Shown: one piece after another, positions 2,021 to 30,692 of the stretch | Layout of the letters: each line of letters begins with the position of its first letter | Numbering within the stretch: the stretch's first letter is position 1 | IMG/VR virus record: IMGVR_UViG_3300012953_000026 | Location: 1,797-65,796 of that record | Reading direction: 5' to 3' (one strand) | From: a virus | Taxonomy: Duplodnaviria; Caudoviricetes | DNA: 64,000 bases | Position numbers and translations under genes: made by a program | Notes under the pieces: generated by a model | Databases searched by the model: none | Seen by the model: the letters and a program-made list of their open reading frames with translations, nothing else | What the model was told of the DNA's origin: nothing

Positions 2021-2030
2021 TATCTCCTAA

Positions 2031-3073: not shown

Positions 3074-3093
3074 ATGATCTCCTTTTTTGTTTT

Positions 3094-3122
3094 ATTTTAC
3101 CATATCTGGAATTGATTTGCAC
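3094..3122 (-). promoter_or_regulatory. candidate promoter GTGCAA-N17-TAAAAT upstream of the sigma gene
   Basis: Read directly; extended -10 TG present; same class as other sites in the window. Confidence 0.45.
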
Positions 3123-12256: not shown

Positions 12257-12265
12257 CTCAAAGAT

Positions 12266-12272
12266 TAATTAT
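12266..12272 (-). promoter_or_regulatory. ATANTTA motif (candidate late promoter)
   Basis: ATAATTA about 10 nt upstream of start 12256. Confidence 0.35.
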
Positions 12273-12296
12273 CATCATGGTAGACTAATGATTACC

Positions 12297-15765: not shown

Positions 15766-17202
15766 TTAGTCTTTTAGCAAACCTGCGTTCTTGGACCAGG
15801 TCTCGTATAAGCGGCTTTGAGGATAGAACTTACTATCCAGCCTCTTATTGACAAAGCGCTTGATTTCACCAGTCGTGATCTTCCTCTGTCTTGTTTCTTT
15901 TGTCTGGGCCAAGACCTGTGCTGCAAGAGATGGGATCATCTGCTCTAAAGAGTCAAAATTCTTTTTAGCAAATTTCTTAGACTTGATCAGCGTCTCCTCA
16001 TGAGAGGCGCGCCAGGCCTTGACTGCTTTTGCGACCGCTCGCTGTACAGCTTCTTTACCCTTATCAATCCCTTGGAATATCCCATCCTTTAGCTCTTGAT
16101 TTCTGTTTTTAGCCTTAAGCGACTTTTGGCTAGAGGCTGAAAGCGAGGCCTCCCAGTCTGATAAGGCTTTGGATATCGCGTCCTTTGGAGACATTGACTT
16201 AGAGCCTGCTTCGGCTGCTGCAGCCTTGATACCTTGAGCAGGATCAGATTCTTCTTCAGGATTCTTGGGTAATTCGTCACCTGCTTCATCCTTGGCGGGC
16301 TCTCCCTCTTTGCCTTCGCCTTCTTTACCTTCACCTTCTTTATCTTCGGCGGGTTCAGCAGAGGCCGCAACAGGACCTCCTTCTGATTCCTTACCAGGAG
16401 GAGGAGCTTCTTCGGCGGAAGACTGAACACCTTGAATAACATCAGTAGGTACAATTGCTTTCTCGGCAGCGGAGGCACTTTTAGCGGTTTGTGATCCTAG
16501 GTTCTTTAACTCCCCGTAAGTTAATTGCATCAACTCATCGGAGAGCTTATCGACAGGAAGCTCATCTATCTTTTCTGCACCAGGGATGTCCGCAACAAAT
16601 TTTGATTTACTCATCAAAGATCCAAGCTTAGCCATAAACCCCTTTGGTTTAGCACCCTTAAAGGCTTTAGCTACACCCTTCTTGAGATCATCTGAGCTCA
16701 GGCCATGCTTATCAGGGTTTAGCTCGCCTAACTTCACATCATCTTCTACCTTACCTTCTAGGTTCTTAGAAAGAAGCTCAATTGCCTGAGACATCGTTCC
16801 TGCAGCGGTATTAGATTTATTCTGTAGATCTATTACTGCTTGAAGCGCTCTCGATACGTCCATCTTTTTTCCAAAGAAAGATTTGATTTGAGCACCCACA
16901 CCTTCTGGGTCATCGAGGTCTAACTTAGAAGCAAGTATGTCAGCTTTCTTTAGAGAGTTTTGAAGAGCCCCAAAATACTGCGCCACCGAATCTAGCTTCA
17001 TGCTGTTCGCTGCCGACACGTTCTGTGTGACAGCGGCCATCGCTGTCTTGACTGCTTTCTTTAATTTGTCTATGTCTTCCTGGTTAATGTCTTCCATCAA
17101 CATTCCGTACACAGACCGGTTGGCCATCGAATACTCTAGGAGAGTGTTATCATCAGCTAGCTTTAAGGCTAGCTCGTACATTGTCTCAGAATTCTTCTTC
17201 AT
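15766..17202 (-). CDS. hypothetical protein (478 aa), possible virion-internal protein
   Basis: TLLE/MLME motifs, EGEGK linker repeats, C-terminal LYETWSKNAGLLKD. Confidence 0.7.
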   Translation of the reverse strand: MKKNSETMYELALKLADDNTLLEYSMANRSVYGMLMEDINQEDIDKLKKAVKTAMAAVTQNVSAANSMKLDSVAQYFGALQNSLKKADILASKLDLDDPEGVGAQIKSFFGKKMDVSRALQAVIDLQNKSNTAAGTMSQAIELLSKNLEGKVEDDVKLGELNPDKHGLSSDDLKKGVAKAFKGAKPKGFMAKLGSLMSKSKFVADIPGAEKIDELPVDKLSDELMQLTYGELKNLGSQTAKSASAAEKAIVPTDVIQGVQSSAEEAPPPGKESEGGPVAASAEPAEDKEGEGKEGEGKEGEPAKDEAGDELPKNPEEESDPAQGIKAAAAEAGSKSMSPKDAISKALSDWEASLSASSQKSLKAKNRNQELKDGIFQGIDKGKEAVQRAVAKAVKAWRASHEETLIKSKKFAKKNFDSLEQMIPSLAAQVLAQTKETRQRKITTGEIKRFVNKRLDSKFYPQSRLYETWSKNAGLLKD

Positions 17203-17219
17203 ATATTCCTCCGCATAAT

Positions 17220-17226
17220 TAATTAT
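17220..17226 (-). promoter_or_regulatory. ATANTTA motif within the 14-bp palindrome CATAATTAATTATG (17214-17227)
   Basis: 18 nt upstream of start 17202. Confidence 0.35.
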
Positions 17227-18083
17227 GAAGGCTCCTCTTCTTTTTCTGGCTCTAGGGTAAATAAGTCGTCTATATGCTGATCTTTTGTCAAGGTAAAACC
17301 AGCAGCCTTTTTATGACCACCACCCCCAAATTTTTTCGCAAACTCGCTAACGTCCACATTATCATGAAAAGATCTTAGGCTTGCCTTCGTGATCCCAGCG
17401 TCATGATCAAAATACCAAATGACAGCAAAATCACAATCAGGGGACAGCCTTGTACCGATCTCTGACATCCAATGAGAAGCGTTTACTATCATAATCTTTC
17501 TGTTCTCAAAGTAACGGACAACCGCTTTTTCACACACCTTTTTGATCACAGTCTTCGAGTAAGCCAGTATGTAGCTCCCCCTCTTGACTGCATCATCAAA
17601 CACTGAGTCATCTTCGAATTTCTCAAATTCTTCAAACTCAAAAGGCACCATATCAAAAGCAGCGCTAAACTCTTTAGAGTATTCAAGCTCCCAGGTCCAC
17701 AGATCTCTATCCTGGATATACCTAATAAACTTAGGAGACTCTTTTCCTGGATGGAAAAATTCCCACGCTAAAATTGCACCTGACTTTGTCATATCGAAAT
17801 GAGTGTTCGATATATCGTGCAGCTCAACCATCGCCGACTTGTGGTGGTCTATAACCATGAGACCATCAGCGTCTTCTATCATTTGTTTTGTTGTCGCATT
17901 ATTAAAAGAAAAATCTAATATGACGACAACCTTACCTTCTACATCTGGAGGAGTCTGGCCATGCTTACAAGCATGATACTCCGCCCTATTACCTAACAGC
18001 TTCCAAGCCGCATAAGCTGCACCAAAGCCGTCTGTACAGTCTGCGTGATAAATTACACAGTTTACTTGACTGGGTTCAACCAT
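17223..18083 (-). CDS. DHH/DHHA1 phosphoesterase (nanoRNase-like)
   Basis: YHADCTDG, LDFS, DHHKS, DRDLW, SLRS and GGGGHKKAAGF. Confidence 0.88.
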   Translation of the reverse strand: MVEPSQVNCVIYHADCTDGFGAAYAAWKLLGNRAEYHACKHGQTPPDVEGKVVVILDFSFNNATTKQMIEDADGLMVIDHHKSAMVELHDISNTHFDMTKSGAILAWEFFHPGKESPKFIRYIQDRDLWTWELEYSKEFSAAFDMVPFEFEEFEKFEDDSVFDDAVKRGSYILAYSKTVIKKVCEKAVVRYFENRKIMIVNASHWMSEIGTRLSPDCDFAVIWYFDHDAGITKASLRSFHDNVDVSEFAKKFGGGGHKKAAGFTLTKDQHIDDLFTLEPEKEEEPS

Positions 18084-18492
18084 CTTTATCCCTCTGTCCA
18101 GTTATACTAAAATGCCCGTCATTCAACACACAAAAATCTGAGTTTCCAGACGAACTGATTTCATAAATATTACAGTCTGTCAAAGCTTTCAAGGTGTAAG
18201 GACACCCCGATTGTATCTGTAATACGTCACCCCTAACCAAAACCTTTCTAGAAACCAACTGAACATCTTTACTCTTTAAATAAGACTCTGGGGCGAAAAC
18301 CGCCTCAAGCCGTCCTTCTTCGACAAAGAATGTTTCGTTTTTGTTGGTGAAATACTTGGCTCTCGTGGAGTATCCTCTTTTGATAAAAATCTTCTTACCG
18401 AATATCTGTTGGTTTACAAAGTCCCAGCGAACCTCATGCCCCCAGTTCTTTTCAATACTTTCAGATTTTAAAACCCAAGAGCTTTTATTCAT
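18076..18492 (-). CDS. cupin-fold protein (sugar isomerase-like, metal ligands degenerate)
   Basis: EKNWGHE, KKIFIKRG, KNETFFVEEG and GDVLQI..G.PYTLKA; the His ligands are absent. Probable start ATG 18492. Confidence 0.6.
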   Translation of the reverse strand: MNKSSWVLKSESIEKNWGHEVRWDFVNQQIFGKKIFIKRGYSTRAKYFTNKNETFFVEEGRLEAVFAPESYLKSKDVQLVSRKVLVRGDVLQIQSGCPYTLKALTDCNIYEISSSGNSDFCVLNDGHFSITGQRDKDG

Positions 18493-19084
18493 GACCCCCC
18501 CTAGGATCAAAATGACTGTGGCACCTAGGCTGGTATAATTCGGAACCCCCAATCTCGAGCTTTCCAGGATCGTTATTACCTGCTACCTTCTGGGTAAAAT
18601 AAGCGTCCTCTCCACAGACCGAACATACTGCAGGACAGATATGAACGCCAGTAGCCCAAGGTAGCAATTCTTGCAACTCGTCGTATGGATCACCAGAAGA
18701 TGATAACTGAAGACTGGAAACAAGAACTGTTTTACCACGGTTGTATATCTTCTTCAGGGCCGCGGCCGCGCCAGGAATCATAAAAGCCTCATCGACAGCA
18801 ACAACATCTAAATCGTGACCTGAATTACATGCATTGAATCTTTGCAGGAGTTCCTTACCGGTGGATATTCTCTCGACCCGACTAAACCCTACAGCTCTAG
18901 ACGACAAACTTAGCCCGCTATGCGTGACAATGGAGTCTCTATCATAACGCTCGTCTATTTTGGGCTTGAATAGCAAGATGCTCTTGTTTTGATACTGGTA
19001 TCGATCTAAGGCGGCAATCAATCGAGTTGTCTTTCCGCCGAACATAGGACCAGTAAAAATCTCGAAACGGGGATTCCTGTTCAT
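18485..19084 (-). CDS. tdk: thymidine kinase
   Basis: GPMFGGKTT, LLFKPKIDERY, VDEAFM and lasso Zn motifs CSVCG...RCHSH. Probable start ATG 19084. Confidence 0.9.
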   Translation of the reverse strand: MNRNPRFEIFTGPMFGGKTTRLIAALDRYQYQNKSILLFKPKIDERYDRDSIVTHSGLSLSSRAVGFSRVERISTGKELLQRFNACNSGHDLDVVAVDEAFMIPGAAAALKKIYNRGKTVLVSSLQLSSSGDPYDELQELLPWATGVHICPAVCSVCGEDAYFTQKVAGNNDPGKLEIGGSELYQPRCHSHFDPRGGHE

Positions 19085-20088
19085 TATGAGTTTTCTTTCA
19101 ATCCCCACCACTCAATTGTCTTATTTAACCCGGAAATAAAATCCCACTCAGGCTGGAAACCTAGATCTTCTGCAATCTTCGTCATGTCAGCTTTCGTATG
19201 CTTCACATCTCCGGGTCGAGCAGGTGCATTCACGATCTCTAAATCACCGAACCTCGCCTTTAACATATTCAGTATTTCATTATTGCTAAAGGTTTCTCCA
19301 GTCCCTACGTTATAGGCATCACCTGACATCACACCCGGGGCTTGGGCAGCTGCGATATTCGCACCGACCACATCATCGATGTAAACAATATCTCTAGTCT
19401 GCTCACCATCCCCATCACTTCTCAGCGATTGGTCTGTGGCAATCTTGTCAAGCCACGCGGAGACTGCGGTAGAGTACGGGCTGTCACCCGGCTGGCCAGG
19501 TCCGAAAACGTTAAAGTAGCGCAAGCAGACTGACTGTAAATCATACAGCTTAAAAAACAACCGGCAGAAATTTTCAACGACAAGCTTCTGTAAGGCGTAC
19601 GGAGAGGCTGGCTCTAAAGACCCGGACTCTTTTGAAGGAAAATTGTCAGGCACGTCTCCATAAACTGAAGAGGAGGAACTAAACACTAACCTATCTATGT
19701 TCGAGACGCATGCTGTCATCAAAGAGACAGTCTTCATTACATTCTGGTCTGTTGTCAAAACTGGGTTTTCAACAGAAAACTGCACTCTGGGTAATGCTGC
19801 AAGGTGAAAGACATAGTCATATTTTTTATCTGCAATTCTTGACAGTACGTAGGGACTGGCAAAATCGCCAGTAATGACCAGCGCCTTGTCTTCCACAATT
19901 CCTGACTCTTCATATTGCAAAAGAAGCTCAGGAGTAACAGTCCTGATGTCTATTGCATCTAAAGCAGCGATATCTCCGCTCGAAAGATCATCGACAACCT
20001 CAACATCCCAACCTTTTTTGATCAAGGCAACTGCAAGATTTGAGCCAATAAATCCGCAGCCACCAGTAACTAAAGCTCTCTTTTTCAT
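19084..20088 (-). CDS. NAD-dependent NDP-sugar epimerase/dehydratase (GalE/WbpP-like extended SDR)
   Basis: TGGCGFIGS, HLAA, FSSSSSVYG, SPYALQK (YxxxK), LRYFNVFGP and RDIVYIDDV. Confidence 0.9.
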   Translation of the reverse strand: MKKRALVTGGCGFIGSNLAVALIKKGWDVEVVDDLSSGDIAALDAIDIRTVTPELLLQYEESGIVEDKALVITGDFASPYVLSRIADKKYDYVFHLAALPRVQFSVENPVLTTDQNVMKTVSLMTACVSNIDRLVFSSSSSVYGDVPDNFPSKESGSLEPASPYALQKLVVENFCRLFFKLYDLQSVCLRYFNVFGPGQPGDSPYSTAVSAWLDKIATDQSLRSDGDGEQTRDIVYIDDVVGANIAAAQAPGVMSGDAYNVGTGETFSNNEILNMLKARFGDLEIVNAPARPGDVKHTKADMTKIAEDLGFQPEWDFISGLNKTIEWWGLKENS

Positions 20089-20089
20089 T

Positions 20090-20611
20090 TTAATCAACTC
20101 CTAAAAAACACTTAATTTCTGAAACTTGCTTTTCTAAATTCATATCAGAAGTTTCCAGAAACAAAACATCACAATTTGTTTTGCCCAAAAACATTCTATA
20201 CCGTTCTTCAATTTTTTTTAAAGTTTTATCGTTTATTTCGTCTGGAAACAAGTCATCCTGTACGCCCTCGTAGCTCTTCTTGTAGCAGAATATTAACTTT
20301 CCATCAATAGAAGAAAACTTTTCATCGAGTCTTGATATCAGGTCTTCATTGGTTTCACGACCAAATATTGCAGAATATGCATACTCACAAGGGTAGAACC
20401 TATCAAGAATTGCAGTTGGCCTCACTTGCACCAAAAAATCCATGAGAAAAGTGCCACCAAATTTGAGCAGGTTTAAATAGTAATCATCACCGCTCAAATC
20501 TGCTTTCCACTCCCCAGTATTTTTAAAAACAGGTATACCTAGGTCTTTCGATAGCTGACCAGCTATATTAGACTTTCCTGTCATGTCAGGACCGATGAAA
20601 GCTAAAATCAT
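20090..20611 (-). CDS. deoxynucleoside monophosphate kinase (thymidylate-kinase-like)
   Basis: P-loop GPDMTGKS and LDRF motif. Confidence 0.75.
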   Translation of the reverse strand: MILAFIGPDMTGKSNIAGQLSKDLGIPVFKNTGEWKADLSGDDYYLNLLKFGGTFLMDFLVQVRPTAILDRFYPCEYAYSAIFGRETNEDLISRLDEKFSSIDGKLIFCYKKSYEGVQDDLFPDEINDKTLKKIEERYRMFLGKTNCDVLFLETSDMNLEKQVSEIKCFLGVD

Positions 20612-20615
20612 TACC

Positions 20616-21659
20616 CTACCCGCAAAGATGTTCCAGAAGGTCTACCCGAGACTCTGGACGGGGATCAATTACTGTCCGCAAAGCCTCTTCTTGCAGATTC
20701 ACCAAACCCAAGCGGTCTTCAGCTGATAGTGTGGATAACCACTTCGTCTTATTAACAACATCCTCTGTGGACCTCACGATTAGGGACTCGTCTTTTAAGC
20801 CAACAGGACGAGCGTGCTCATATTCCCATGGAATCAGTGCAGGTACCCCGCTCTTTATCGCTTCGAAAAAGCGGCCCGTAATGTTCCCGAAAGGAGTATA
20901 GTCATCCTTTGTGATATGAGTTACAGTAATAGAGGAATTCAAGACAGAAAAGATATCCTTGTACGCCAAGCGTGGGCCGAATGCGACGTTTGGCGCGTTA
21001 ATGATCCTAACAGCTGGATCTTCTCTTTCCGGAGACCTAGCTAGCCAATTACCACAAACGTACGTTTGGATCCCTTGCTCCCTGAGGGGCGTGCTCGGAT
21101 CTACGTAGTATTTCTTAAACTGGTTTTCTCTCTCGTAATTGTTTCCGACGTACGTGTAATTGTAAGAATACTCGACTGGAGAGAAGTAGCGATGCATGTA
21201 GTTGCACCAGGGGATTGAAATTCTTTTTCTAGTCAACATTCGAGGATTCACACACGCATCGGAAATTACTGCGTTAGGCCAGCGTTGCTCTTCTTCAGCG
21301 GTCATTTTAAGATCACCGTCATGAATGATGATGGGTACTCCGGCTGCGTGATAGTGATCTAAAACTTCACATTGTCTTGTATAGTCTGACTCTTGAGAAT
21401 TGCTGCCAGAATTTTTCCACGTTGGCCAGCGCCACTCACAATACACGATATCACCTTCTGGAAAACCAACTGGGTGATACTCAACGCCCGGGAACTGCTC
21501 TTCATCTCGCATCTTCTGCAATTGAATCACAGTGTGGTCTCTTCCTTGAAGTTCTCTTACAAAGTCAACTCGATTTCCTCGCTCGCCATCAGGTGTATTC
21601 ACCATAGAATTTTTCTCTAAAGGAGTAATGAAACCCCAGAAACTGTAAAGTACCCTCAT
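20616..21659 (-). CDS. GT-B glycosyltransferase, T4 DNA beta-glucosyltransferase-like
   Basis: C-terminal domain YTYVGNNYERE...ITKDDY..GNITGRFFEAIKSGVPALI parallels T4 BGT (VIYGGSFRSGQRE...IGDKNYNDNFITLRVWETMAS) from my recollection; same size (about 350 aa). The track start is 21671. Confidence 0.7.
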   Translation of the reverse strand: MRVLYSFWGFITPLEKNSMVNTPDGERGNRVDFVRELQGRDHTVIQLQKMRDEEQFPGVEYHPVGFPEGDIVYCEWRWPTWKNSGSNSQESDYTRQCEVLDHYHAAGVPIIIHDGDLKMTAEEEQRWPNAVISDACVNPRMLTRKRISIPWCNYMHRYFSPVEYSYNYTYVGNNYERENQFKKYYVDPSTPLREQGIQTYVCGNWLARSPEREDPAVRIINAPNVAFGPRLAYKDIFSVLNSSITVTHITKDDYTPFGNITGRFFEAIKSGVPALIPWEYEHARPVGLKDESLIVRSTEDVVNKTKWLSTLSAEDRLGLVNLQEEALRTVIDPRPESRVDLLEHLCG

Positions 21660-21660
21660 A

Positions 21661-22770
21661 TTATTCTCCATCCTTTTTTAATTCTTTCTTTACCTTATAC
21701 AAGGCCGAACCTATTACTTGGTGCATATCATAATATCGATATTCTGCCAATCTACCTCCAAATATTATATCACTATTTTTCGCAAGAACAGAATACTTCT
21801 TGAACATGTCGCTGTTTTTCTTATCGTTGACTGGGTAATATGGGACCTTACTCGGCGTCCAGTCTTGCGGATATTCTTTCGTTATAACTGTCTTTTTGAT
21901 GCTAGGTGCATCCTGCGGTTGGAAATGCTTGTGTTCTACAATCCTTGTATACGGGACTTCGTAATCCGTATAGTTTACAACAGCGTTACCCTGGTAATCC
22001 CCATCGTAGACTTCGTGTTCGAACCGTAGAGATCTATATTCAAGATACCCATGCTCGTAGCCAAAAAACTCGTCAATCTTACCAGTGAAAACAGTCTTAT
22101 CAGCCAGAGAGTCCCACTTCTCTCTATCTTCTAAATAATCGATACCCAGTTGGACCTCTGCTCCTTCTAGCATTTTAGAGATCATTCCGGTGTAACCATC
22201 GACTGGAATCCCTTGGTATTTATCAAAGAAGTAATTCTCTTCAAAGATCATTCTAATCGGTAAGCGTTTTATGATTGAGGCTGGTAGCTCACTTGGGTGA
22301 CGCTTCCACTGCTTCATAGTGTACCCCTTGATGAACGTCTCGTAGACCTCTCGACCCACTTGTGACAAAATCCACTCTTCTAAATTTTGCGGATTCTCAC
22401 AAGGAATTCTGACCTCTTGAAGCTTTGCCTCAGCTTCGGCCGGGGTTGTCACTCCCCACAGCTGGTGAAGAGTCATTAGATTAATAGGGAAAGAATATAT
22501 ATTACCGCGAAAATTCACCTTAGGCTTATTGATATATTGATTGAACTCGGTGAACCGGTTTACAAAATCCCAAATCTTTTCATTGTTTGTGTGAAATATA
22601 TGCGGACCATAAACATGGACGTCGACACCGTCTCGCTTTTCGGTATAGCAGTTTCCACCGATGTGGTCTCGCTTATCTAAAACAAGAACAGACTTACCGC
22701 TGTCCATCATCTCCCTTGCGAAAGTAGCACCGAACATACCGGCACCCACTATCAAATAATCATACTTCAT
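21661..22770 (-). CDS. glf: UDP-galactopyranose mutase
   Basis: IVGAGMFGA (FAD), HIGGNCY, HVYGPHIFHT, KGYTMKQW, YTRIVEHKHF, YYPVN and GRLAEYRYYDMHQVI. Confidence 0.95.
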   Translation of the reverse strand: MKYDYLIVGAGMFGATFAREMMDSGKSVLVLDKRDHIGGNCYTEKRDGVDVHVYGPHIFHTNNEKIWDFVNRFTEFNQYINKPKVNFRGNIYSFPINLMTLHQLWGVTTPAEAEAKLQEVRIPCENPQNLEEWILSQVGREVYETFIKGYTMKQWKRHPSELPASIIKRLPIRMIFEENYFFDKYQGIPVDGYTGMISKMLEGAEVQLGIDYLEDREKWDSLADKTVFTGKIDEFFGYEHGYLEYRSLRFEHEVYDGDYQGNAVVNYTDYEVPYTRIVEHKHFQPQDAPSIKKTVITKEYPQDWTPSKVPYYPVNDKKNSDMFKKYSVLAKNSDIIFGGRLAEYRYYDMHQVIGSALYKVKKELKKDGE

Positions 22771-23785
22771 TTCTTCTCCTTAAATCAACTTCATAACCAG
22801 AATAGTCAAAATCTATATTTTCTAAAACCCGCTTGCCAAAACCTAGCTTCTTCGCCCTGTGGTAAGCCAGCAGGCTGGCAAAATCTGTCCAAACGTTTTT
22901 ATCGCCATTTGAATACAGCTCTTGCAATAACGTTACTAATTCACTCTCTGTGCTGGATGACCTGACGTCTTTCTCAAATGTCAAGATCTTCTGTAACCAT
23001 CTCTCTTTCCCACCGTTTAGAAAGTCATCAGGTGCAAAGTTAGGCATCTCCCCGTTATGAACTGAACCCATGGCTGACTCATGCTCTCCACGGTCTGTTA
23101 GGATCACCCTGCACATCTTAAAGTGTCTCTCATAAATGTGCAGAGAATTACTACAGTGTGTATAGGTCCCTAACTCGACCCCAAGCTCTAGAGCAAGCAT
23201 CTCTTGAAAAAAAGTAAAAGCTGGAATATCGTAAGCAATTCCAAAAATAAGATCAGAACTTCTCATATTAACGATCATGTGAAGTTGAGCATCTCTTATA
23301 AAGAACTGAAGACTTAGTGTACAGGGCACATCTAGCTTTGCATCGACACTATCATCAGGAGTTCTTAAATGAATGATCGCTCTTCTTGAATCTGGATCCC
23401 TTGTTAACTCATCTTTTACAAAATCCCACTGATTCAACCTTCCACCGGCGATGATAGGATTTGTATGAAATATCCTAGCCCCATAAGCGGAATTAGCAGT
23501 CTTACCGTCATCACTGATATTTGACCAGAACTTTGAATAATTTGATATCCATTCTGTAGAATTGTTACCAGACAAATACCAGACCATCTCAGCCGCAAGG
23601 TACGTCGGGCTAAAGTTTCTACCCCACACAAAAGGGTACCTGTGTCGAGGGTTGTCTATTGTAAAAGACACTCCTAGTTTTTCTCTTATCTTCTGACCTC
23701 GAGGAGAGGACTCGTACTCATAATCGTTGTAGACCTCCCTAATTAGTGCGAGGTAACAGTCGGTGAAGTTCTTAAATTTTCTCAT
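22760..23785 (-). CDS. thymidylate-synthase-fold enzyme, probably dCMP-specific (dCMP hydroxymethylase-like)
   Basis: SRRAII, catalytic VPCT, MRSSDLIFGIAYD and SLHIYERH. Asp occupies the position of ThyA Asn177. Confidence 0.8.
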   Translation of the reverse strand: MRKFKNFTDCYLALIREVYNDYEYESSPRGQKIREKLGVSFTIDNPRHRYPFVWGRNFSPTYLAAEMVWYLSGNNSTEWISNYSKFWSNISDDGKTANSAYGARIFHTNPIIAGGRLNQWDFVKDELTRDPDSRRAIIHLRTPDDSVDAKLDVPCTLSLQFFIRDAQLHMIVNMRSSDLIFGIAYDIPAFTFFQEMLALELGVELGTYTHCSNSLHIYERHFKMCRVILTDRGEHESAMGSVHNGEMPNFAPDDFLNGGKERWLQKILTFEKDVRSSSTESELVTLLQELYSNGDKNVWTDFASLLAYHRAKKLGFGKRVLENIDFDYSGYEVDLRRRNEV

Positions 23786-23790
23786 ATTTT

Positions 23791-23819
23791 ATTATACTCT
23801 AAGGACCTTAATTTTTCTC
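23791..23819 (-). promoter_or_regulatory. candidate promoter GAGAAA-N17-TATAAT, leaderless (ATG 5 nt after -10)
   Basis: Read directly from the sequence. Confidence 0.4.
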
Positions 23820-26800
23820 ATAGATGTTTGAAATCCGAAATCATTTTTATTTAGCTCTCCTACGCACAAACTGTATTTTGCCATTTCTGTCTTGCCATCC
23901 CAGCTCCAGCAGAAGATCCTAAACTGCTGTCCAGAAGTACCAGCAACTGTCAGCAACAAGTAGGGTTTGTTGTTCTTGGTTACCTTTTCTTTGACGTCCA
24001 TTACAAGAAACCAATGCAAATCAACCCCGTTATAGTCATCAATGACGCTGATCTCTTTCTCATCAAGACGCTGAATTACTTCTGGAGATATAAGAGTTGA
24101 CACGTTAAATGACCCAAGGTGAGCGACGCTGTTTTGGACCTGTTCGTGTCTAGACCACTCTCCTTCCCCTTGGGTCTCTAAAGTCAACCTCTTAAAAGCG
24201 TCTTGGCCACGGGTCGGGTCTTTCTTTGTCCACTTCTTGATCTCAGTGTTGTTGTTAATGATAACCTCACTCATTTGCTTATAGCTATCAAAAGTCGAAT
24301 CAGGCCCAATACAGTTAACAGATCCAAAGGCCTTGATAGCTATCAGGGCTTGCATGGCTCTCTTATTAAACTTCGAATGTTTCCACTTACCGTCCTCATT
24401 CCACAACAAGTCCTCAACGTTATTATACGGTCTATTACCTAGTATCTCTTCAATAGCAGCTTCACCAACGCCCTTACAGGAGAGAAAAGACGGCATGAAT
24501 TTCTTACCATCTAAAATGGTCCACGACTTTGTTGCATAATTGATGTCAATAGGAACGATCTTATAACCTAGCGCTTTCACTTCGGAAAATGCCTTGGCAC
24601 GTTTTTTATCATTACCAGACATTGATTCAAGATAGGCGCACAGCCATTCTTCTTCGAAGTAAGTTAAAAGCCACGCACAGTAATAAGAATCAATCGCGTA
24701 ACAAACAGCATGAGACTTATTGAAACCGTAACCTGCAAAGAATAATATCTTCTCATAAAGATCATCAGCCAGCTGTTCATCAACTCCGTTCTTTACAGAG
24801 CCAGCGACAAATTGTTCCTTGATTGCACGAGCCTTAGCAAGGGACTCTGCAGCTTCTGACGCCTTACGCTTCATAATATTACGGCGTACTGTGTCTGTTT
24901 CCTCCTCCGGGAAACCAGCCACCACAGAACACAGCTTCATAATCTGTTCCTGAAACACGATCAAGCCGTATGTCTCTTCTAAAACCTCTCTGATAAGAGG
25001 GTGACCATAATCAATGTCATCAGGATTGTTCTTGGCATTTATATACAGCTTGTCAACCTTCGCAGTCAAAGGACCCGGGCGATATATCGAAGTTAGAGTG
25101 GCAATATCGACAATGCTCTTCGGCTTAGCTTTCTTAAATAGGTTTTGTGCACCGCGGCCAGCCAGTTGAAATATGCCGGCCCAGCGGCCCTTTGCATAGA
25201 CGTGTTCATAAACGTGTTGATCATCCATATCAAGAACTTTTGGATCCATATTGGAATTAAACCATTCATACACTTGTTCGAACGTTGGGTTCTCAATCCC
25301 TTCCTTACGCTGCAGAATCAGTTCGATGGTACGCTGAATTACACGAAGAGTTTCGAGGCCTAGCAGATCAAACTTAATCCAACCGAAAGTTTCAAGGTGC
25401 TTATAATTCATGCCTTCAGCCCAAGGAGTTTGGAGTTCGCCGCGGGCTTTGATAAGGGGCATTCTTTCTGCAATATTTTCTGCTACAATACAACCACCAG
25501 CATGTCGACCAAGCGCTTTGTTTTGCTTAAATAAGACCTGGATTGGATCAGCAACTTCTGGGTACTTTTCAATAAAGTCTCTAAAAGTTTTTGAGTGTGC
25601 TATTGCGTCTTCGTAAAGTAACACAAATAGATTCTTATCAGTTCCCTGCTTGAAAACAGCACGCTTTACATCATTCTCAACAGGCGCTAGCGCCTTATTC
25701 ACTTCGCTGAATGGGATCCCATAAAAACGAGATATATCTTTAACGAGAGACTTAAGCTTAAAAGTGTTGTAATTGGAAATCGGAACGATGTTTTCGTCAC
25801 CCCACTTGTCTTTCATCATGTTGATAAGCAGATCACGATCACCCACGTCGGTGTCAATATCTGGCGCACCTTCACGAGACGGGTTTAAAAAGCGACCAAA
25901 CATAAGATCATATTCGAACGGATCAACGTCGGTTAATCTGAGTACGTATGCAACAAGACTACCCGCAGCAGAGCCGCGACCTGGTCCTACAAGCATCGCT
26001 TTCTTAGCAATTTCAATGATGGCTTCCATAGTCAAAAAGTAGCGAGAAAAATTCTTGTCTTTAATAATCTTAAGCTCATGCTTTATTCGCTCAACGTACT
26101 TAGGATCCTTTTCAAGACCGCGGGCGATCAAACCTTTCTTACATGCTTCAAGCAGAGCCTTATCATCAGACATGCCTTTCGGCACAACATACGACGGAAG
26201 CTTCATACTTCTGTCAGGATGAATGTCAGAAATTGTTTGGTGAACAATATCATGTGGCCTTTCAACCGCGTCCCTGATCATTTCATTATTGTAAAAGTTC
26301 ATGCCATCAGTGGTCTCGAGATAAGTGTCCCATACCTGCTCGGCGTTCTTTGGATAGAGCTCACACTTTAGCTCATCCCTTGACTGGGGCAACTTGGAAG
26401 GATCAAAGTCACGATAGTTCAGCCACCCCAGTTTCTTGTACAGTTCACGCTCTTTCCAGTGTTCAGGTCGAGCATAATGAGAGTCTGTCGTCACGACTAG
26501 CTTATCAGTAATACCTTGCGATTCTGCAAACTGAATAATGGCTCTATTCACAAGGTGCTGCGCAGGCAATTTGTTGAATTGTATTTCTAACATCACATCA
26601 TCAATACCAACTGAATCGACTAGACCTTGATACGCGTTGCCAACACCGTTCATGACCTTGGAGTGAAAAGAGGGATCATCTAGGAGCTTATGGCTTAAGT
26701 CATCGAATTCTACCTGTTGAGCGTGGCGAAAAACCTCATAAGCTATAGGACCGCCAATACACGCGGTGGAGACCATCAGGTGGCCACCCTCAGACGCTTC

Positions 26801-27397
26801 CCGGAGCATTTTGTAGTCTATCCTAGGAAATCGGTAAAAGCCTTCTCTGTAGCCACGACTCACTAAGTGAAATAACCTCTGTAGTCCTTCACTGGTCTTA
26901 GGAAGAACGACAAGGTGATGGCGTCTCTTGATAGGATCATAAAACTTGGCCGACTTTGTTTCTTCCTCGTTCTCCACAGTCAGCCCAGCCTCTTCGACTG
27001 CGACGTCAACTACTTCATCATCGCCATCGACAACAGCTGTTAGCGGAGTCACGATGGCTTCTCGTTGTGCTTTCAGTATGGCGATAGATTCCTTGTCACC
27101 CTTCTTGGCAGCTTGACGAATTTGACGATCAAGTTCCCATACTTGTAGATCAGGGTGAACGTACATTTCGCAACCTGGAACAAATTTAAAACCAGGATTC
27201 TTCTTTCTAATTTTTTCTGCGTGAAGATACGCATGGCCGAATGAATTCATATGACCATGGTTAGTTAGGCACCAGCTATCCATTCCGTTTTCTAGAACAA
27301 AGTCTATATGTTCTTGAGGATAGCCTAGACCATCAAATGTCGAAAACCCATCATGAGAATGTAAAGAAGTAAAATTCTTGGGGGGTATAATAGCCAT
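23792..27397 (-). CDS. dnaE: DNA polymerase III alpha subunit (family C) with intact-looking PHP domain
   Basis: PHP HSH..D, GPGRGSAAGSLVAY, PDIDTD, RHAGG, KFDLLGL, RPGP, VFQEQIM and YGFNKSHA; no intein. Confidence 0.95.
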   Translation of the reverse strand: MAIIPPKNFTSLHSHDGFSTFDGLGYPQEHIDFVLENGMDSWCLTNHGHMNSFGHAYLHAEKIRKKNPGFKFVPGCEMYVHPDLQVWELDRQIRQAAKKGDKESIAILKAQREAIVTPLTAVVDGDDEVVDVAVEEAGLTVENEEETKSAKFYDPIKRRHHLVVLPKTSEGLQRLFHLVSRGYREGFYRFPRIDYKMLREASEGGHLMVSTACIGGPIAYEVFRHAQQVEFDDLSHKLLDDPSFHSKVMNGVGNAYQGLVDSVGIDDVMLEIQFNKLPAQHLVNRAIIQFAESQGITDKLVVTTDSHYARPEHWKERELYKKLGWLNYRDFDPSKLPQSRDELKCELYPKNAEQVWDTYLETTDGMNFYNNEMIRDAVERPHDIVHQTISDIHPDRSMKLPSYVVPKGMSDDKALLEACKKGLIARGLEKDPKYVERIKHELKIIKDKNFSRYFLTMEAIIEIAKKAMLVGPGRGSAAGSLVAYVLRLTDVDPFEYDLMFGRFLNPSREGAPDIDTDVGDRDLLINMMKDKWGDENIVPISNYNTFKLKSLVKDISRFYGIPFSEVNKALAPVENDVKRAVFKQGTDKNLFVLLYEDAIAHSKTFRDFIEKYPEVADPIQVLFKQNKALGRHAGGCIVAENIAERMPLIKARGELQTPWAEGMNYKHLETFGWIKFDLLGLETLRVIQRTIELILQRKEGIENPTFEQVYEWFNSNMDPKVLDMDDQHVYEHVYAKGRWAGIFQLAGRGAQNLFKKAKPKSIVDIATLTSIYRPGPLTAKVDKLYINAKNNPDDIDYGHPLIREVLEETYGLIVFQEQIMKLCSVVAGFPEEETDTVRRNIMKRKASEAAESLAKARAIKEQFVAGSVKNGVDEQLADDLYEKILFFAGYGFNKSHAVCYAIDSYYCAWLLTYFEEEWLCAYLESMSGNDKKRAKAFSEVKALGYKIVPIDINYATKSWTILDGKKFMPSFLSCKGVGEAAIEEILGNRPYNNVEDLLWNEDGKWKHSKFNKRAMQALIAIKAFGSVNCIGPDSTFDSYKQMSEVIINNNTEIKKWTKKDPTRGQDAFKRLTLETQGEGEWSRHEQVQNSVAHLGSFNVSTLISPEVIQRLDEKEISVIDDYNGVDLHWFLVMDVKEKVTKNNKPYLLLTVAGTSGQQFRIFCWSWDGKTEMAKYSLCVGELNKNDFGFQTSMRKIKVLRV

Positions 27398-27443
27398 TCA
27401 TTTCCCTATTCTATTGCATTTTTGTGGTTAGGCGAATATGAAT

Positions 27444-27472
27444 ATTATAAAGGAATGTAGCAAGTTATTCAG
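27444..27472 (-). promoter_or_regulatory. candidate promoter CTGAAT-N17-TATAAT upstream of dnaE
   Basis: Read directly from the sequence. Confidence 0.5.
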
Positions 27473-27477
27473 TTTTT

Positions 27478-27852
27478 TTAGGGTTTAATTTCAGACAATC
27501 TATCAGTTATTATCTTGTGTTTGCGAGTGTAGGCTTCAAAAAATTCTTCTGAATCTACACCTGTCAAAACCAGTATTGCCAAGAAATAATTAAAAGCGTC
27601 TATCATTTCCTCCAGGTATTCCTGCCTGTCGAATTCTTTCTTAGAAGCCCTGTGATCTTTCCAGTTCTTCAGGTGTAGCAGCGCCTCAAAAAGCTCTTCA
27701 ACACTTCTAAACGTTATTTCTCGCAAGACCTTTTGGGAAGCCTTATCCTCCAGGTTTACTGGCCACTCCGGATACGCTCCTCCGACTTTCTCAGAGATTG
27801 TTCGCATAAAATCTTGCCTGAGCGCAAAAAGTAAATCTAATCTATCATCCAT
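27478..27852 (-). CDS. all-alpha NTP pyrophosphohydrolase (dUTPase/dCTPase/MazG-like)
   Basis: EELFEALLHLKNWKDH...EEMIDAFNYF acidic metal motif (EExxE...ExxD). Confidence 0.75.
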   Translation of the reverse strand: MDDRLDLLFALRQDFMRTISEKVGGAYPEWPVNLEDKASQKVLREITFRSVEELFEALLHLKNWKDHRASKKEFDRQEYLEEMIDAFNYFLAILVLTGVDSEEFFEAYTRKHKIITDRLSEIKP

Positions 27853-27872
27853 AGTCTAACTCCTAAAATTGA

Positions 27873-27901
27873 ATATTAGACTGGTAGACTAGTTTTTACA
27901 C
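27873..27901 (-). promoter_or_regulatory. candidate promoter GTGTAA-N17-TAATAT
   Basis: Intergenic; a GGAG SD follows. Confidence 0.4.
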
Positions 27902-27902
27902 T

Positions 27903-28622
27903 TTAAGATTGAGACAAAGATTCCAGGACTTCAGAGATTTTCTCTTCAGTCACATTCCGCAGGCCGTACTTCGGAAGTATTGTAATAAGCAGAGATTTTC
28001 TAACCTGAACATTATCGCAAGACTCTCCCCAGACCCAAGGAAGGGTACTGGTTAATTTATCAAGCTCTTTCCTTACAAGATCTTGCCTTTTGCAGTTGTA
28101 CTGCAACTCTATTTCCGGATCTAAACTATTTTCGATTGAAAGCTTTTCACATATCTCTATAAGCAGATCATAATTTTCTTCTTCAACTGCTCTGTTGGCT
28201 TGAGAATATAACTCTTGTAACTCTTCAAGATTCTCGCTGTCCCCCACTTTGTCAGGATGTGTTTTCAATGCAATCTTCCGAAAAGCTTTTTTCGCCCAGT
28301 CTGGAGTGTTTGGTTTTACGACGTCTTCGAAGGGAGGCTTCTCATTCGAGTCCTCGAACTTAAAGTCTCGAAAATTGTTATCACCCACTTCCTGTTTATC
28401 CGATCTTTGCTCTTCCTCTTGATCTTGAGGATTTTCTTCATCGGCTGGAGGTTCTTTTAATTTATCGATTATAAATTTCATGTCCGATGTCCATTCAGCA
28501 GAATAGTCGGACATTATTTCACTACAGTCTTCTAGGTATGATAAAAGCATGGAGAGCTCAGCTTTCGCTCTCCTTAACTCTCTAAGCGCTTTTCTTTTCT
28601 TTATTTTGTCTTTGTGCTTCAC
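27903..28622 (-). CDS. J-domain (DnaJ-like) protein with central J domain
   Basis: KKAFRKIALKTHPDKV with the HPD motif intact. Confidence 0.75.
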   Translation of the reverse strand: MKHKDKIKKRKALRELRRAKAELSMLLSYLEDCSEIMSDYSAEWTSDMKFIIDKLKEPPADEENPQDQEEEQRSDKQEVGDNNFRDFKFEDSNEKPPFEDVVKPNTPDWAKKAFRKIALKTHPDKVGDSENLEELQELYSQANRAVEEENYDLLIEICEKLSIENSLDPEIELQYNCKRQDLVRKELDKLTSTLPWVWGESCDNVQVRKSLLITILPKYGLRNVTEEKISEVLESLSQS

Positions 28623-28627
28623 AAAGA

Positions 28628-28634
28628 TAAGTAT
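28628..28634 (-). promoter_or_regulatory. ATANTTA motif (candidate late promoter, leaderless spacing)
   Basis: ATACTTA 5 nt before GTG 28622. Confidence 0.35.
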
Positions 28635-28640
28635 TGAAAG

Positions 28641-28874
28641 CTAAGCCTCAGGTTCTTCTAAATCATCAGAATTATCGATCTCTGTCAATAATTTTTCTAC
28701 GCTTGCGTCTAGAGACTCTTTAAAGTTGCCGTGTACCTCAAGGACCCCGGATTCTCCTTCAACTAATCTCATCATCCTTAAGTTATCTACGATGTCTGTT
28801 CCGGTGATAATTGCGATTTGCAGCACCTTTGCTACGTTTGCGATCACTTCATCACTAAGTCTTAATTCTTTCAT
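28641..28874 (-). CDS. hypothetical protein
   Basis: Probable start ATG 28874 (MKELRLSDEVIA); the track starts at 28901. Confidence 0.6.
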   Translation of the reverse strand: MKELRLSDEVIANVAKVLQIAIITGTDIVDNLRMMRLVEGESGVLEVHGNFKESLDASVEKLLTEIDNSDDLEEPEA

Positions 28875-28876
28875 TT

Positions 28877-29683
28877 TCACCCCTGAATTTCTGGTACCCA
28901 ATGAGTCGTTCGACCATCAGGTGTTTTTTCTTTTTTTACGGTATTACCGTCTGGATCATTTTTCTGATTATATACTAAGAAACGAGAACTGTAATTGCCA
29001 ATTTCACCATAAAAATCTCGATAAGAGTTAATGGTTGCACCGCCTGTCTGAAAGGATTCTCTCATAACAGACTTTATCGACTTGTTGAGCATTTTTAAAT
29101 TAGAGTCAGAAAGATCGCTAACTTTCTTGAACGGGCTTATTCTGGCAAGATACAGAGCTTCTGCTTTTACGTAGTTACCCACTCCAGCAACAACTGATTG
29201 ATCCATTAAAGCCTTTGTGATATTTACATCATCTTTTTTTCTTATCGAAGAAAGAAACAAGTCGTTGCTAACATCTTCAGCCAGCATATCCGGGCCGAAT
29301 GAGGCGAGCTTTGAAGAGAGCTGTTTTGGATCAAAAGAGAATTTAATTGTTCCAAAGTTGCGCATATCGTTGAAGTAGACAGTCTTACCGTTGTTAAACT
29401 TCAGCGACACCCGTGTGTGTTGAGTTGATTCTTTTTGCCAAGCCCCAGTCATGCCTAGGGTTGACCACATACTGCTCTTATCCTGGAATATGAAATATAT
29501 GAATTTACCATGAACGCCTACACCCTGAACCTGAAGCGGAAGTCTTTGCTTTAGTGTGTCTAAGCCCGGAAGCTCTTTTTTCAAATATCTCCCTGACACT
29601 ATCTCTATTTCCTGTAAAACATCTCCGCCGACGCTCTCTCCCAAGAACATTGCATATCTTCTACACTCTGGACCTTCAGGCAT
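28877..29683 (-). CDS. Fpg/Nei family DNA glycosylase/AP lyase with zincless finger
   Basis: N-terminal PEGPE, HGKF, LGMTG, FNDMRNFG, H2TH ALMDQSVVAGVGNYVKAEAL, C-terminal GRTTHWVPEIQ with no Cys. Confidence 0.9.
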   Translation of the reverse strand: MPEGPECRRYAMFLGESVGGDVLQEIEIVSGRYLKKELPGLDTLKQRLPLQVQGVGVHGKFIYFIFQDKSSMWSTLGMTGAWQKESTQHTRVSLKFNNGKTVYFNDMRNFGTIKFSFDPKQLSSKLASFGPDMLAEDVSNDLFLSSIRKKDDVNITKALMDQSVVAGVGNYVKAEALYLARISPFKKVSDLSDSNLKMLNKSIKSVMRESFQTGGATINSYRDFYGEIGNYSSRFLVYNQKNDPDGNTVKKEKTPDGRTTHWVPEIQG

Positions 29684-30116
29684 TTTGGCACCCTCCGTAG
29701 TTGTCTAGTAAAAAACTGTGGTAATCTACCAGAGCATGATCATTAGGCTCTAGTAACCGCCACTCTCCTTTTATGAAAATGTTATACGCATCGTCAGCGT
29801 ATTTTCCACACCCATAAAGCTCCTTGGCATCCGACCATTCTTCGCCGAGGTACTCTTCGCAAAACCTCTTTAAGATCTTTACTCTTCTGTTTACGAGACC
29901 TAGAGAACAAAGCTCTTCTCGTAATCTATCTTCAGGCGCAGAAATAAGAGAGATCGGATCAGGGTATTGAGAAAAAAAATCTTGTATCATCGGCTCGACT
30001 TGCTTTCTAGAAGTTTGGTTCAATAATAAGCAAGTGACAAGGATCTTCCAACCATCTGGCCAGAACCTCTCCTGGAGCAGGTCATAAGGTGATTTAGGGG
30101 GTATCCACTCATTCAT
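29676..30116 (-). CDS. MBD4-like G:T/G:U mismatch DNA glycosylase (stand-alone HhH catalytic domain)
   Basis: WIPPKSPYDLLQE...WKILVTCLLLNQTS...LGL...GCGKYADDAY.IF..GEW...PNDHAL..Y matches the MBD4 glycosylase domain pattern; the catalytic Asp position is retained. Confidence 0.85.
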   Translation of the reverse strand: MNEWIPPKSPYDLLQERFWPDGWKILVTCLLLNQTSRKQVEPMIQDFFSQYPDPISLISAPEDRLREELCSLGLVNRRVKILKRFCEEYLGEEWSDAKELYGCGKYADDAYNIFIKGEWRLLEPNDHALVDYHSFLLDNYGGCQNA

Positions 30117-30122
30117 GGATAA

Positions 30123-30151
30123 ATTATATCAACCCTGGATATTTTTTTCAG
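30123..30151 (-). promoter_or_regulatory. candidate promoter CTGAAA-N17-TATAAT, leaderless (ATG 6 nt after -10)
   Basis: Read directly from the sequence. Confidence 0.55.
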
Positions 30152-30154
30152 GTA

Positions 30155-30475
30155 TTACTTGATAAACTTCATGGCGAACATGACTGCTGCCATGGCAAAT
30201 TGAACTACAGCGAATATTGTGACTGCTTTGGTTTTAAAAGTCTTAAGATCCTCGACTTCTTCCGTTAAGTTCTTGAGCTGGGTAGGCGACGCAACTTCGT
30301 CAATTTTTTCTTTCCATTGCCTTAGTTCTGTTACCCTGTCTTCTCTGTCTCGGAGAAGAGCGATATCTTGCTTGATATCATGCATCTCGTCTTTAAGAGA
30401 TTCAATTCCCGTTGAAAGGGTTTCTAGCTCTTTTAGGACTAACTTTGAGTATTCCGCCCAACCGTTTTCAGACAT
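30155..30475 (-). CDS. coiled-coil protein with C-terminal TM helix
   Basis: MSENGWAEYSKLVLKEL..., C-terminal AVTIFAVVQFAMAAVMFAM. Probable start ATG 30475. Confidence 0.6.
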   Translation of the reverse strand: MSENGWAEYSKLVLKELETLSTGIESLKDEMHDIKQDIALLRDREDRVTELRQWKEKIDEVASPTQLKNLTEEVEDLKTFKTKAVTIFAVVQFAMAAVMFAMKFIK

Positions 30476-30692
30476 TGTCTTCGGCTCCACCACTTATAGT
30501 TTCCTTTATTGAAGCCTGAATTTCTCTCAACTCTTGAATGATGTCATCATTCTCTTTGCAACTAGGCTTGTACTTATCTAAACATTCATCAAACTGTAAC
30601 CAGAGAGAAACTAAAGCAGAGCTGACTTTTTTACCTCTTGCTCGAGAAGCAAGTTTTACTCGAAGCGCCTCTAAATGATCATATTTCCCCAT
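30468..30692 (-). CDS. hypothetical protein (74 aa)
   Basis: Packed ORF; ATATTTA upstream. Confidence 0.55.
   Translation of the reverse strand: MGKYDHLEALRVKLASRARGKKVSSALVSLWLQFDECLDKYKPSCKENDDIIQELREIQASIKETISGGAEDNV

Follow-up and report, generated by a model that had tools for sequence, protein, structure and literature searches.

The locus described herein raises the question of whether a marine phage replaces the cytosine of its DNA with a hydroxymethylated base and then decorates that base with a furanose sugar whose donor the phage makes itself. The stretch analyzed, hereafter the window, comprises 64,000 nucleotides (positions 1,797 to 65,796) of IMGVR_UViG_3300012953_000026, an uncultured marine virus contig of 65.8 kb in IMG/VR; since CheckV rates this record as about 21% complete, the phage is jumbo-sized. 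A preliminary description had noted seven contiguous, co-oriented genes, encoding an all-alpha dNTP pyrophosphatase, a DnaE polymerase, a thymidylate synthase (TS)-fold enzyme, a UDP-galactopyranose mutase (Glf), a glycosyltransferase (GT), a deoxynucleoside monophosphate kinase and an NDP-sugar 4-epimerase, and had proposed that these enzymes add galactofuranose (Galf) to cytosine-modified DNA. In the present study, all seven open reading frames (ORFs) were found as described, on the minus strand, tightly packed or overlapping: the TS and Glf genes overlap by 11 nt, Glf and GT by 11 nt, and kinase and epimerase by 8 nt, and 6 nt separate DnaE from TS. Family assignments were made with Pfam (matches at E<=0.01), PHROGs and NCBIfam. 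As predicted from the encoded enzymes, a pathway producing 5-hydroxymethylcytosine (5hmC) plus a sugar is likely. The complete interpretation, in which T4-style cytosine replacement would be followed by glycosylation to a Glf-fed galactofuranosyl-5hmC, is the one that we favor, with a confidence slightly below even.

The predicted modified base and the glycosyltransferase

First, the base is considered. The gene at 22760..23785 (PF00303, 1.9e-32) encodes a MilA/gp42-type TS homolog, a predicted dCMP 5-hydroxymethylase, whose best solved relative is the CMP hydroxymethylase MilA (5jnh, E 5e-46). The protein was aligned with E. coli ThyA, T4 gp42, RB69 gp48 and the homolog of Lactobacillus phage ATCCB, and, in ThyA numbering, the catalytic Cys of its 'DVPC' motif aligns with C146, L143 is replaced with Asp ('LDVPC'), N177 is replaced with Asp ('AYD') and Asp169 is retained ('RSSD'), the same Asp143/Asp169/Asp177 signature as that of T4 gp42 and MilA. 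According to Lee et al. 2026 (PMC13326640), Asp177 denotes cytosine as the substrate, a product other than methyl is indicated when residue 143 is acidic, and Asn169 marks the flavin-dependent 5-hydroxy-dCMP synthases, every tested one of which carries Asn at this position. This mark, characteristic of RB69 gp48, DLP3 gp80 and RL38J1_216 ('RSQN' in RB69 gp48 and RL38J1_216), was absent from the TS homologs of the window and of 43 relatives, which belong to a set of 46 related IMG/VR loci retrieved through the GT. Asp169 is present in the window and in 43/43 of these TS homologs (as 'RSND' in locus L028), Asp143 and Asp177 are conserved across the same 43, and the full signature was observed in 42, the remaining one, L028, having a gp42-like TS homolog. 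Asp143 and Asp177 with Asp169 retained thus predict 5-hydroxymethyl-dCMP as the product, rather than the 5-hydroxy-dCMP of the RB69/RL38J1 type. The proposed TS-fold enzyme with a cytosine-type Asp was therefore recovered together with a hydroxymethyl signature and, judging from these residues, it is very probable that 5hmC is made.

At the sites where MilA has 'SKRA' and 'RAND', the window protein has 'SRRA' and 'RSSD'; in work by Zhao et al. in 2016, Arg and Ser instead of Lys133 and Ala176 of MilA reportedly set the preference for deoxyribonucleotides over CMP. Each of five large relatives carries one ThyA-fold gene, and four of the five also carry a separate ThyX, so that dTMP synthesis is covered elsewhere, independently of the TS homolog, an arrangement that parallels td plus gp42 in T4. 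The C-terminal extension of approximately 100 aa (22760-23050) lies beyond the TS fold and is common to Bacillus phage G gp319, and that of MilA is of similar length. In L028, the epimerase gene is located upstream of DnaE, and a T4 gp42-like TS homolog (11595-12359, 'MRSNDAIIGYKNDRAWQ'), 30% identical to that of the window, stands in place of the MilA-like one; this looks like an exchange of one hydroxymethylase for another inside the module.

Second, three further genes encode putative enzymes of nucleotide supply and DNA synthesis. The family profile of the MazG-like all-alpha NTP pyrophosphatase (27478..27852; PF01503, 9.5e-6; phrog_12184, 3.9e-15) gave no meaningful match against the PDB, and it aligned with the T4 gp56 dCTPase over the C-terminal 69 columns (hhalign 94.4%, E 8.8e-8). 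The pyrophosphatase assignment is thus confirmed, and the protein is inferred to be a candidate dCTPase. The DnaE-type replicative polymerase (23792..27397, 1201 aa) has PHP, pol III alpha, finger and HhH domains (PF07733, 6e-55; PF17657, 3e-39; PF02811, 1.9e-22). The P-loop nucleotide kinase (20090..20611, 173 aa) was identified through profile comparisons and is a candidate hm-dCMP kinase; its family profile matched YorR (2axp, 1e-7) and deoxyguanosine kinase (2e-4) in the PDB and RB69 gp45 by hhalign (96%, E 4.4e-9), and the P-loop alone matched RL38J1_214 (81%). The kinase assignment is consistent with these results, with a YorR/RB69-gp45-like rather than a T4 gp1-like affiliation. Table 1 of PMC13326640 lists kinases of this class for the clusters of RB69, DLP3 and RL38J1.

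Third, the GT (20616..21671, 351 aa), a predicted DNA 5hmC glycosyltransferase, belongs to a family with 138 homologs in a set of 5.8 billion proteins and 256 representative clusters, nearly all unnamed and virus-only, with many on contigs of 100-290 kb. The AlphaFold (AF2) model obtained from 43 sequences has a predicted local distance difference test score (pLDDT) of 94 and a compact GT-B fold. In a second-look structural alignment, this model matched T4 beta-glucosyltransferase (BGT; 1qkj) with a Z score of 23.1 (root-mean-square deviation 3.6, 306 aa), the next family reaching 21.9. The GT family profile aligned with a profile of seven BGT homologs at 95.5% (hhalign, E 1.5e-8; GT 180-338 against BGT 194-339) and with T4 BGT alone at 33%, and four control GTs, namely RL38J1_215, p227 of Aeromonas phage 25, and GT1a and GT1b of a glycan island discussed below, gave 0.2-15% against the same family. 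In the profile alignment, the family-invariant R181/R267/E270/Q327 of the GT face the BGT-invariant R195/R269/E272/Q327; R181, R267 and E270 are invariant across 43 family members, and we take R195, R269 and E272 of BGT to be UDP-binding residues. D118 is also invariant and D120 is found in at least 90% of the members, following strand 114-117, and their resemblance to the BGT 'YYLFTD' (D100) is by eye only. Neighbors of the GT in a protein atlas carry the BGT domain PF09198, which is a lead only. A specific relationship of the C-terminal half to the T4 BGT family (CAZy GT63) is supported by the profile comparisons, and the GT probably acts on DNA.

Fourth, the gene set recurs. DnaE, GT, kinase and epimerase occur within a few kb of each other in 46/46 loci, with varying gene order, and a cytosine-type TS homolog is present in 43/46; the loci that lack it are L019 and L047, where about 0.6 and 2.3 kb of sequence, respectively, follow the GT, and L033, which is a contig of 7.9 kb. 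This recurrence is far beyond chance, and the module is always located among replication genes. The sugar cassette beside the GT differs by clade, consisting of the epimerase alone, of the epimerase and Glf, or of the epimerase and a second short-chain dehydrogenase/reductase (SDR). The second SDR adjoins the GT in clades lacking Glf, where it is GalE-like in L032 (11043-12032) and L038 (11047-12039) and dehydratase/UXS-like in L027 (9021-10007), and suggests that different sugars are placed on the same scaffold. In L027, DnaE is seemingly split into three consecutive ORFs (527-5275; 959, 319 and 341 aa, HHH_6 on the last), and several other relatives gave partial DnaE matches only.

The sugar donor and the proposed pathway

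The donor is expected from the last two enzymes of the cluster. The SDR epimerase (19084..20097; PF01370, 9e-51) has an intact Ser-Tyr-Lys triad and no dehydratase Asp-Glu pair; its 'FSSSSSVYG' and 'SPYALQK' motifs align with S124, Y149 and K153 of GalE, and Thr occupies the position of the E. coli GalE gate residue Tyr299. Glf (21661..22770; PF03275, 6.8e-76; PF13450, 7e-22) matches the E. coli UDP-galactopyranose mutase (UGM) 1i8t with E 2e-133 and clears the TIGR00031 UGM equivalog cut-off (387.3 vs 303.75 bits). As in E. coli, Glf carries His ('IFHTN') and Lys ('SIIKRL') at two positions where the C. jejuni UDP-N-acetylgalactopyranose mutase (UNGM) 4mo2 has Arg, and Arg59 and Arg168 of that enzyme, in the work of Poulin et al. 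in 2010, are said to allow acceptance of UDP-GalNAc; His and Lys instead of the two Arg suggest that Glf favors plain UDP-galactose. Within the window, translation of Glf is coupled to that of TS and GT. The same placement between TS and GT characterizes one well-supported GT subclade (11 distinct sequences, including the window), and in L043, from the other half of the GT tree, the order is Glf-kinase-GT-epimerase-TS. The L043 Glf falls in a separate Glf lineage together with phage ATCCB and Pootjesviridae, with a support of 99 in the Shimodaira-Hasegawa-like approximate likelihood ratio test (SH-aLRT); a single origin of the L043 and window-clade Glf was not rejected by the approximately unbiased (AU) test (p 0.07).

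Herein, we propose the following pathway. The MazG-like enzyme would lower dCTP, giving dCMP, which the MilA/gp42-type TS homolog, as its active-site residues suggest, would convert to 5-hydroxymethyl-dCMP. The YorR-like kinase, together with a host NDP kinase, might then produce hm-dCTP, and the phage DnaE would put this nucleotide into DNA. After replication, the BGT-related GT-B enzyme is predicted to move the sugar from a UDP-sugar onto the 5-hydroxymethyl group in DNA. The donor would come from the cluster itself, the epimerase converting UDP-glucose to UDP-galactose and, in the subclade of the window, Glf contracting it to UDP-galactofuranose. The product would be galactofuranosyl-5hmC, beta-linked if the GT inverts like BGT, and the modified DNA might be shielded from restriction and CRISPR nucleases. 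The overlap of Glf with the TS and GT genes, the second Glf lineage in the same cluster in L043 and the TS/BGT/Glf triad of ATCCB make Galf a plausible sugar, and its presence on the DNA is put forward as a tentative prediction.

The logic is that of T4, in which a pyrophosphatase (gp56), a TS-fold hydroxymethylase with Asp143/Asp177 (gp42), a kinase (gp1) and a DNA GT (BGT) are combined, and homology to BGT is detectable in the C-terminal domain of the window GT (95.5%), as is homology to gp56 in the MazG-like protein (94%). In contrast to T4, the hydroxymethylase is MilA-like with a C-terminal extension, the kinase is YorR-like, the polymerase is DnaE rather than family B, and the N-terminal half of the GT is unrelated in sequence to BGT. 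The window cluster also has its own sugar-nucleotide enzymes, epimerase and Glf, and the donor is thus not expected to be plain UDP-glucose.

Competing explanations

Several observations weigh against this interpretation, concerning first the sugar and then the GT. The whole case is sequence-based, and the pathway is a predicted one. The epimerase scores 160 bits against the GalE model TIGR01179, for which the cut-off is 262, and slightly higher against the TviC model, likewise under its cut-off, and its nearest solved structures are 6dnt, PelX, a T. maritima epimerase, WbgU and WbpP. Since the score is under the GalE cut-off and the nearest structures are of the GlcNAc-type or bifunctional, UDP-glucose is only a putative substrate of the epimerase; the assignment as an NDP-sugar 4-epimerase stands on the conserved triad, and the enzyme resembles the WbpP/PelX/WbgU type more closely than it does E. 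coli GalE. Moreover, Glf is missing from most clades with the same GT, being found in one GT subclade and L043, and no GT residues track it: a comparison of the two Glf lineages with members lacking Glf yielded one marginal column. The joint recurrence of Glf, a BGT-like GT and an Asp-type TS homolog, a check suggested in the preliminary description, was observed in that subclade, in L043 and, with a BGT homolog, in ATCCB; among the best 80 viral Glf loci in IMG/VR, a TS homolog or related GT lies within 10 kb (<=10 kb) only in the 6 of the window clade.

The location of the next-closest Glf genes (62-67% identical) also counts against Galf on DNA. These genes lie in a glycan island of sister jumbo phages, distant from the DNA-metabolism block, in the order GDP-mannose dehydratase (GMD), UDP-glucose dehydrogenase, SDR, Glf, PD-(D/E)XK nuclease and two GT4 genes (GT1a and GT1b). 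Island Glf and window-clade Glf are sister groups, and the joining branch is weak (SH-aLRT 87, drawn unresolved). The window relatives share the island (GMD 70% and GT1a 62% identical), and, as Glf has occupied two alternative loci within one phage group, UDP-Galf may serve other transferases. Five records with island-type Glf were also searched for the GT and none contained it, an absence that is uninformative because the records are 17-45% complete. The island Glf lies at about 10001-11100 of the full-length loci L082, L084-L088 and L113. In the window relatives, the island spans approximately 19 kb (L064, G002:C1:35000-54500) and lacks Glf. Its glycosyltransferase genes comprise four of GT2, a fucosyltransferase-like one of GT10 and two of GT4 that also match PF20706 'GT4-conflict', and it further encodes two DegT aminotransferases, GDP-mannose 4,6-dehydratase, a reductase, a PD-(D/E)XK nuclease and a tail-fibre-like protein that bears an S74 chaperone domain. 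Elsewhere, in cultured T4-like Aeromonas phages (phage 25, NC_008208; L072 4992-8263), Glf is followed by two unannotated ORFs of approximately 350 aa, 'not conserved in 44RR'; by hhalign, neither BGT nor the window GT was clearly related to the first of these ORFs.

In the first alternative, the 5hmC pathway and the DNA GT operate as proposed and a pyranose is transferred (galactose, glucose, or an N-acetylhexosamine (HexNAc) made by the epimerase). UDP-Galf would then go to a second-step DNA GT or to island GT4/GT2 enzymes, probably decorating virion proteins or another glycan. We regard this explanation as less likely than the favored one, although it accounts for the universal presence of the epimerase, and not of Glf, beside the GT, for the lack of Glf-linked GT residues, and for the sister Glf inside the island, flanked there by sugar-nucleotide genes on one side and PD-(D/E)XK-GT1a-GT1b on the other; the island of G002 (92% complete) has four genes of GT2, one of GT10 and two of GT4, and epimerase-dependent transfer of hexose or HexNAc to 5hmC is experimentally known (bioRxiv 10.1101/2023.12.21.572611). 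On the other hand, it leaves aside that the Glf gene is inserted between TS and GT and overlaps the codons of both, that the same cluster of L043 houses an independent lineage of Glf, and that Glf stands beside TS and a BGT homolog in ATCCB; in addition, the G004 and G005 islands have no Glf, and thus the island does not need it.

In the second alternative, the GT, epimerase and Glf act off DNA, their target being a protein of the virion, a component of the host envelope or a small molecule, and the 5hmC made by the TS homolog stays unglycosylated or the TS homolog serves nucleotide metabolism only. This possibility draws on the properties of the GT itself. In an unbiased wide structure search, BGT (1c3j, Z 21.3) was level with BshA (21.7), sucrose-phosphate synthase (SPS; 21.6) and PimA (21.4), and T4 alpha-glucosyltransferase (AGT) also lies within the tied GT-B group (Z 21.2-21.7); the structural tie includes enzymes acting on small molecules and lipids, such as BshA, PimA and a tetrahydrobiopterin glucosyltransferase. 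Foldseek searches of the PDB and BFVD gave generic GT-B matches only, and with BGT tied with several families the fold alone assigns no family to the GT. The Pfam scan gave no PF09198 match, only a weak one to PF13524 (1.9e-4, CgeB-type, below the cut-off), BLASTP of the GT against the 'beta-glucosyltransferase' of ATCCB gave no match, and no BGT sequence similarity was detectable in the N-terminal (acceptor) half. For these reasons, the earlier designation as T4 BGT-like is borne out, by profile comparison, in the C-terminal half only, and 'BGT-related' is a better label than strict membership in the BGT family. The GT family is acidic, with a pI of 4.9-6.7 (outlier L027, 8.3) compared with 9.05 for T4 BGT; since the ATCCB BGT homolog and RL38J1_215 are acidic too, charge is not decisive. 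Most of the best 80 viral Glf loci are, furthermore, not close to DNA-modification genes. We nevertheless consider action off DNA quite improbable, as, despite rearranged gene order, linkage of the GT with the kinase and the cytosine-type TS homolog holds in 43/46 loci (the other three are truncated or short), the GT is invariably placed in the replication block and at a distance from the glycan island, and its profile match is specific to the DNA-acting BGT family.

A third alternative, in which the TS homolog makes another base carrying the sugar (5-hydroxycytosine as in RB69/RL38J1, 5-hydroxymethyluracil or thymine), finds some footing in MilA also being the best PDB match of the DLP3 and RL38J1 5-hydroxy-dCMP synthases (PMC13326640, Table 1) and in the TS-GT-kinase order shared with RL38J1_216-215-214, but is very improbable given the universal Asp169 where every tested 5-hydroxy-dCMP synthase has Asn (PMC13326640), the argument of Asp177 against a dUMP substrate, and ThyX in the relatives.

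The T4-style pathway ending in galactofuranosyl-5hmC thus remains the interpretation that we prefer. As regards the original proposal that Galf is added to DNA, the 5hmC pathway and the BGT-related GT are supported, and the use of UDP-Galf by the GT is the tentative part, owing to the patchy distribution of Glf, the lack of tracking residues and the island Glf.

Known systems, genome setting and significance

Several known systems share parts of this pathway. RL38J1 and other Pootjesviridae carry galactosyl-(glucosyl)-5-hydroxycytosine with galactose base-proximal, and a phage supply of UDP-Galf was proposed by Lee et al. 2026, the furanose ring form on RL38J1 DNA being a proposal only (PMC13326640). 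Like the window, RL38J1 has a phage Glf and an adjacent TS homolog, GT and YorR/TMPK-like kinase in the same order. However, its TS homolog has Asn169 and makes 5-hydroxycytosine, whereas that of the window has Asp169, RL38J1_215 shows no relation to the window GT family by hhalign, and its Glf is approximately 60 kb from the TS-GT-kinase block, whereas that of the window is inside the block. In RL2RES, the genes around Glf are hypothetical and include neither TS nor GT. RB69 and DLP3 resemble the window in dCTPase, TS homolog, YorR-like kinase, GT-B transferases and a phage furanose-sugar donor pathway, and differ in the base, 5-hydroxycytosine (Asn169), and in the sugar, arabinofuranose made from ribulose-5-phosphate via unrelated enzymes. 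GTs paired with SDR epimerases, as in the window, are also known from metagenomic phages, where epimerase-dependent transfer to 5hmC gave measured hexose, HexNAc and hexuronic acid (HexA) products and where mutase and furanose are not mentioned (bioRxiv 10.1101/2023.12.21.572611); in those clusters, 5hmC arises after replication by a methyltransferase and a TET-like dioxygenase, whereas the window uses a TS homolog.

The cultured Lactobacillus phage ATCCB (MK504445) has three adjacent genes for Glf, a GT and a TS homolog with Asp143/Asp169/Asp177. Its GT is a close T4 BGT homolog (31% identical, E 5e-49), outside the window GT family by BLASTP; in the literature searched, no modification chemistry was found for ATCCB, and its isolation paper is silent on modification. 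The Enterococcus phages VPE25/VFW have cytosine-modified DNA, a BGT homolog and a WbbI-like putative galactofuranosyltransferase, and Duerkop et al. 2016 speculated that a galactofuranosyltransferase acts on VPE25 DNA (PMC4999554). ATCCB and VPE25/VFW are 80-86-kb siphoviruses of Firmicutes with BGT homologs close to that of T4, whereas the window belongs to a jumbo phage with a divergent GT. In light of these reports, the novelty suggested earlier for galactofuranosylated DNA was overstated, as UDP-Galf for phage DNA has been proposed (PMC13326640), a galactofuranosyltransferase on phage DNA has been speculated upon (PMC4999554) and GTs that depend on an epimerase are known from experiment to act on 5hmC (bioRxiv 10.1101/2023.12.21.572611); no description of galactofuranosyl-5hmC was found in the literature searched. 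The general principle being known from T4, and a Glf-fed DNA sugar having been proposed for Rhizobium phages, the value of the present locus is as a testable variant and not as a new kind of system.

The cluster is surrounded by replication and nucleotide genes, including ribonucleotide reductase, DnaB, two FEN nucleases, RecA, a gp32-like single-stranded DNA-binding protein, ClpP, GroEL, Fpg and an HhH glycosylase. Downstream of the epimerase are a thymidine kinase (18485..19111, minus strand; PF00265, 1.3e-35), a 158-aa cupin (18076..18552, minus strand; sole match PHROG 7851, 'cysteine dioxygenase') and a DHH phosphoesterase. The thymidine kinase is a conserved neighbor in most relatives outside the near Glf-carrying subclade and, within that subclade, in L002 only; the cupin keeps its position between the thymidine kinase and the DHH phosphoesterase in most relatives. 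Just upstream of the MazG-like gene are an Fpg/Nei-type glycosylase (28877..29683, minus strand; TIGR00577, 6e-47) and an overlapping gene for a small HhH (EndoIII/MBD4-like) glycosylase (29676..30116, minus strand), one or both of which occupy the same place in many relatives; the pair may be adapted to repairing modified cytosine that has been deaminated or oxidised. Within 17000-30500, promoter-like and terminator-like sites were about as frequent as expected from shuffled sequence. Near-identical DNA was found in marine metagenome runs of several studies, no RNA run was among the sequencing runs listed as containing the stretch, and the 8.8-kb stretch (megablast) and the GT (tblastn) gave zero matches against 50,697 phage records.

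If the chemistry holds, a furanose hexose would be a new sugar in the hydroxymethylcytosine family of phage DNA modifications, and the compact, self-sufficient seven-gene cassette could serve, once transferred to E. coli, to produce DNA of this kind. In its most far-reaching form, which we advance with greater reserve than the assignment of Galf itself, the hypothesis is that abundant marine and aquatic jumbo phages carry beta-D-galactofuranosyl-5hmC, a new base, made by a divergent relative of GT63 that would be the first galactofuranosyltransferase of the GT-B type and the first with demonstrated action on DNA, and that neighboring clades swap cassettes for other sugars. The GT family would represent a large, unnamed, virus-only branch of predicted BGT-related DNA glycosyltransferases, for which the adjacent variable sugar cassettes would be useful in the study of donor specificity and, if the hypothesis is true, would yield a natural series of glyco-diverse DNA on one 5hmC scaffold. 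DNA modified in this way would be expected to withstand restriction enzymes and Cas nucleases and to be attacked by type IV systems, and might thus be relevant to marine phage-host ecology and to enzymatic tools that read or write 5hmC.

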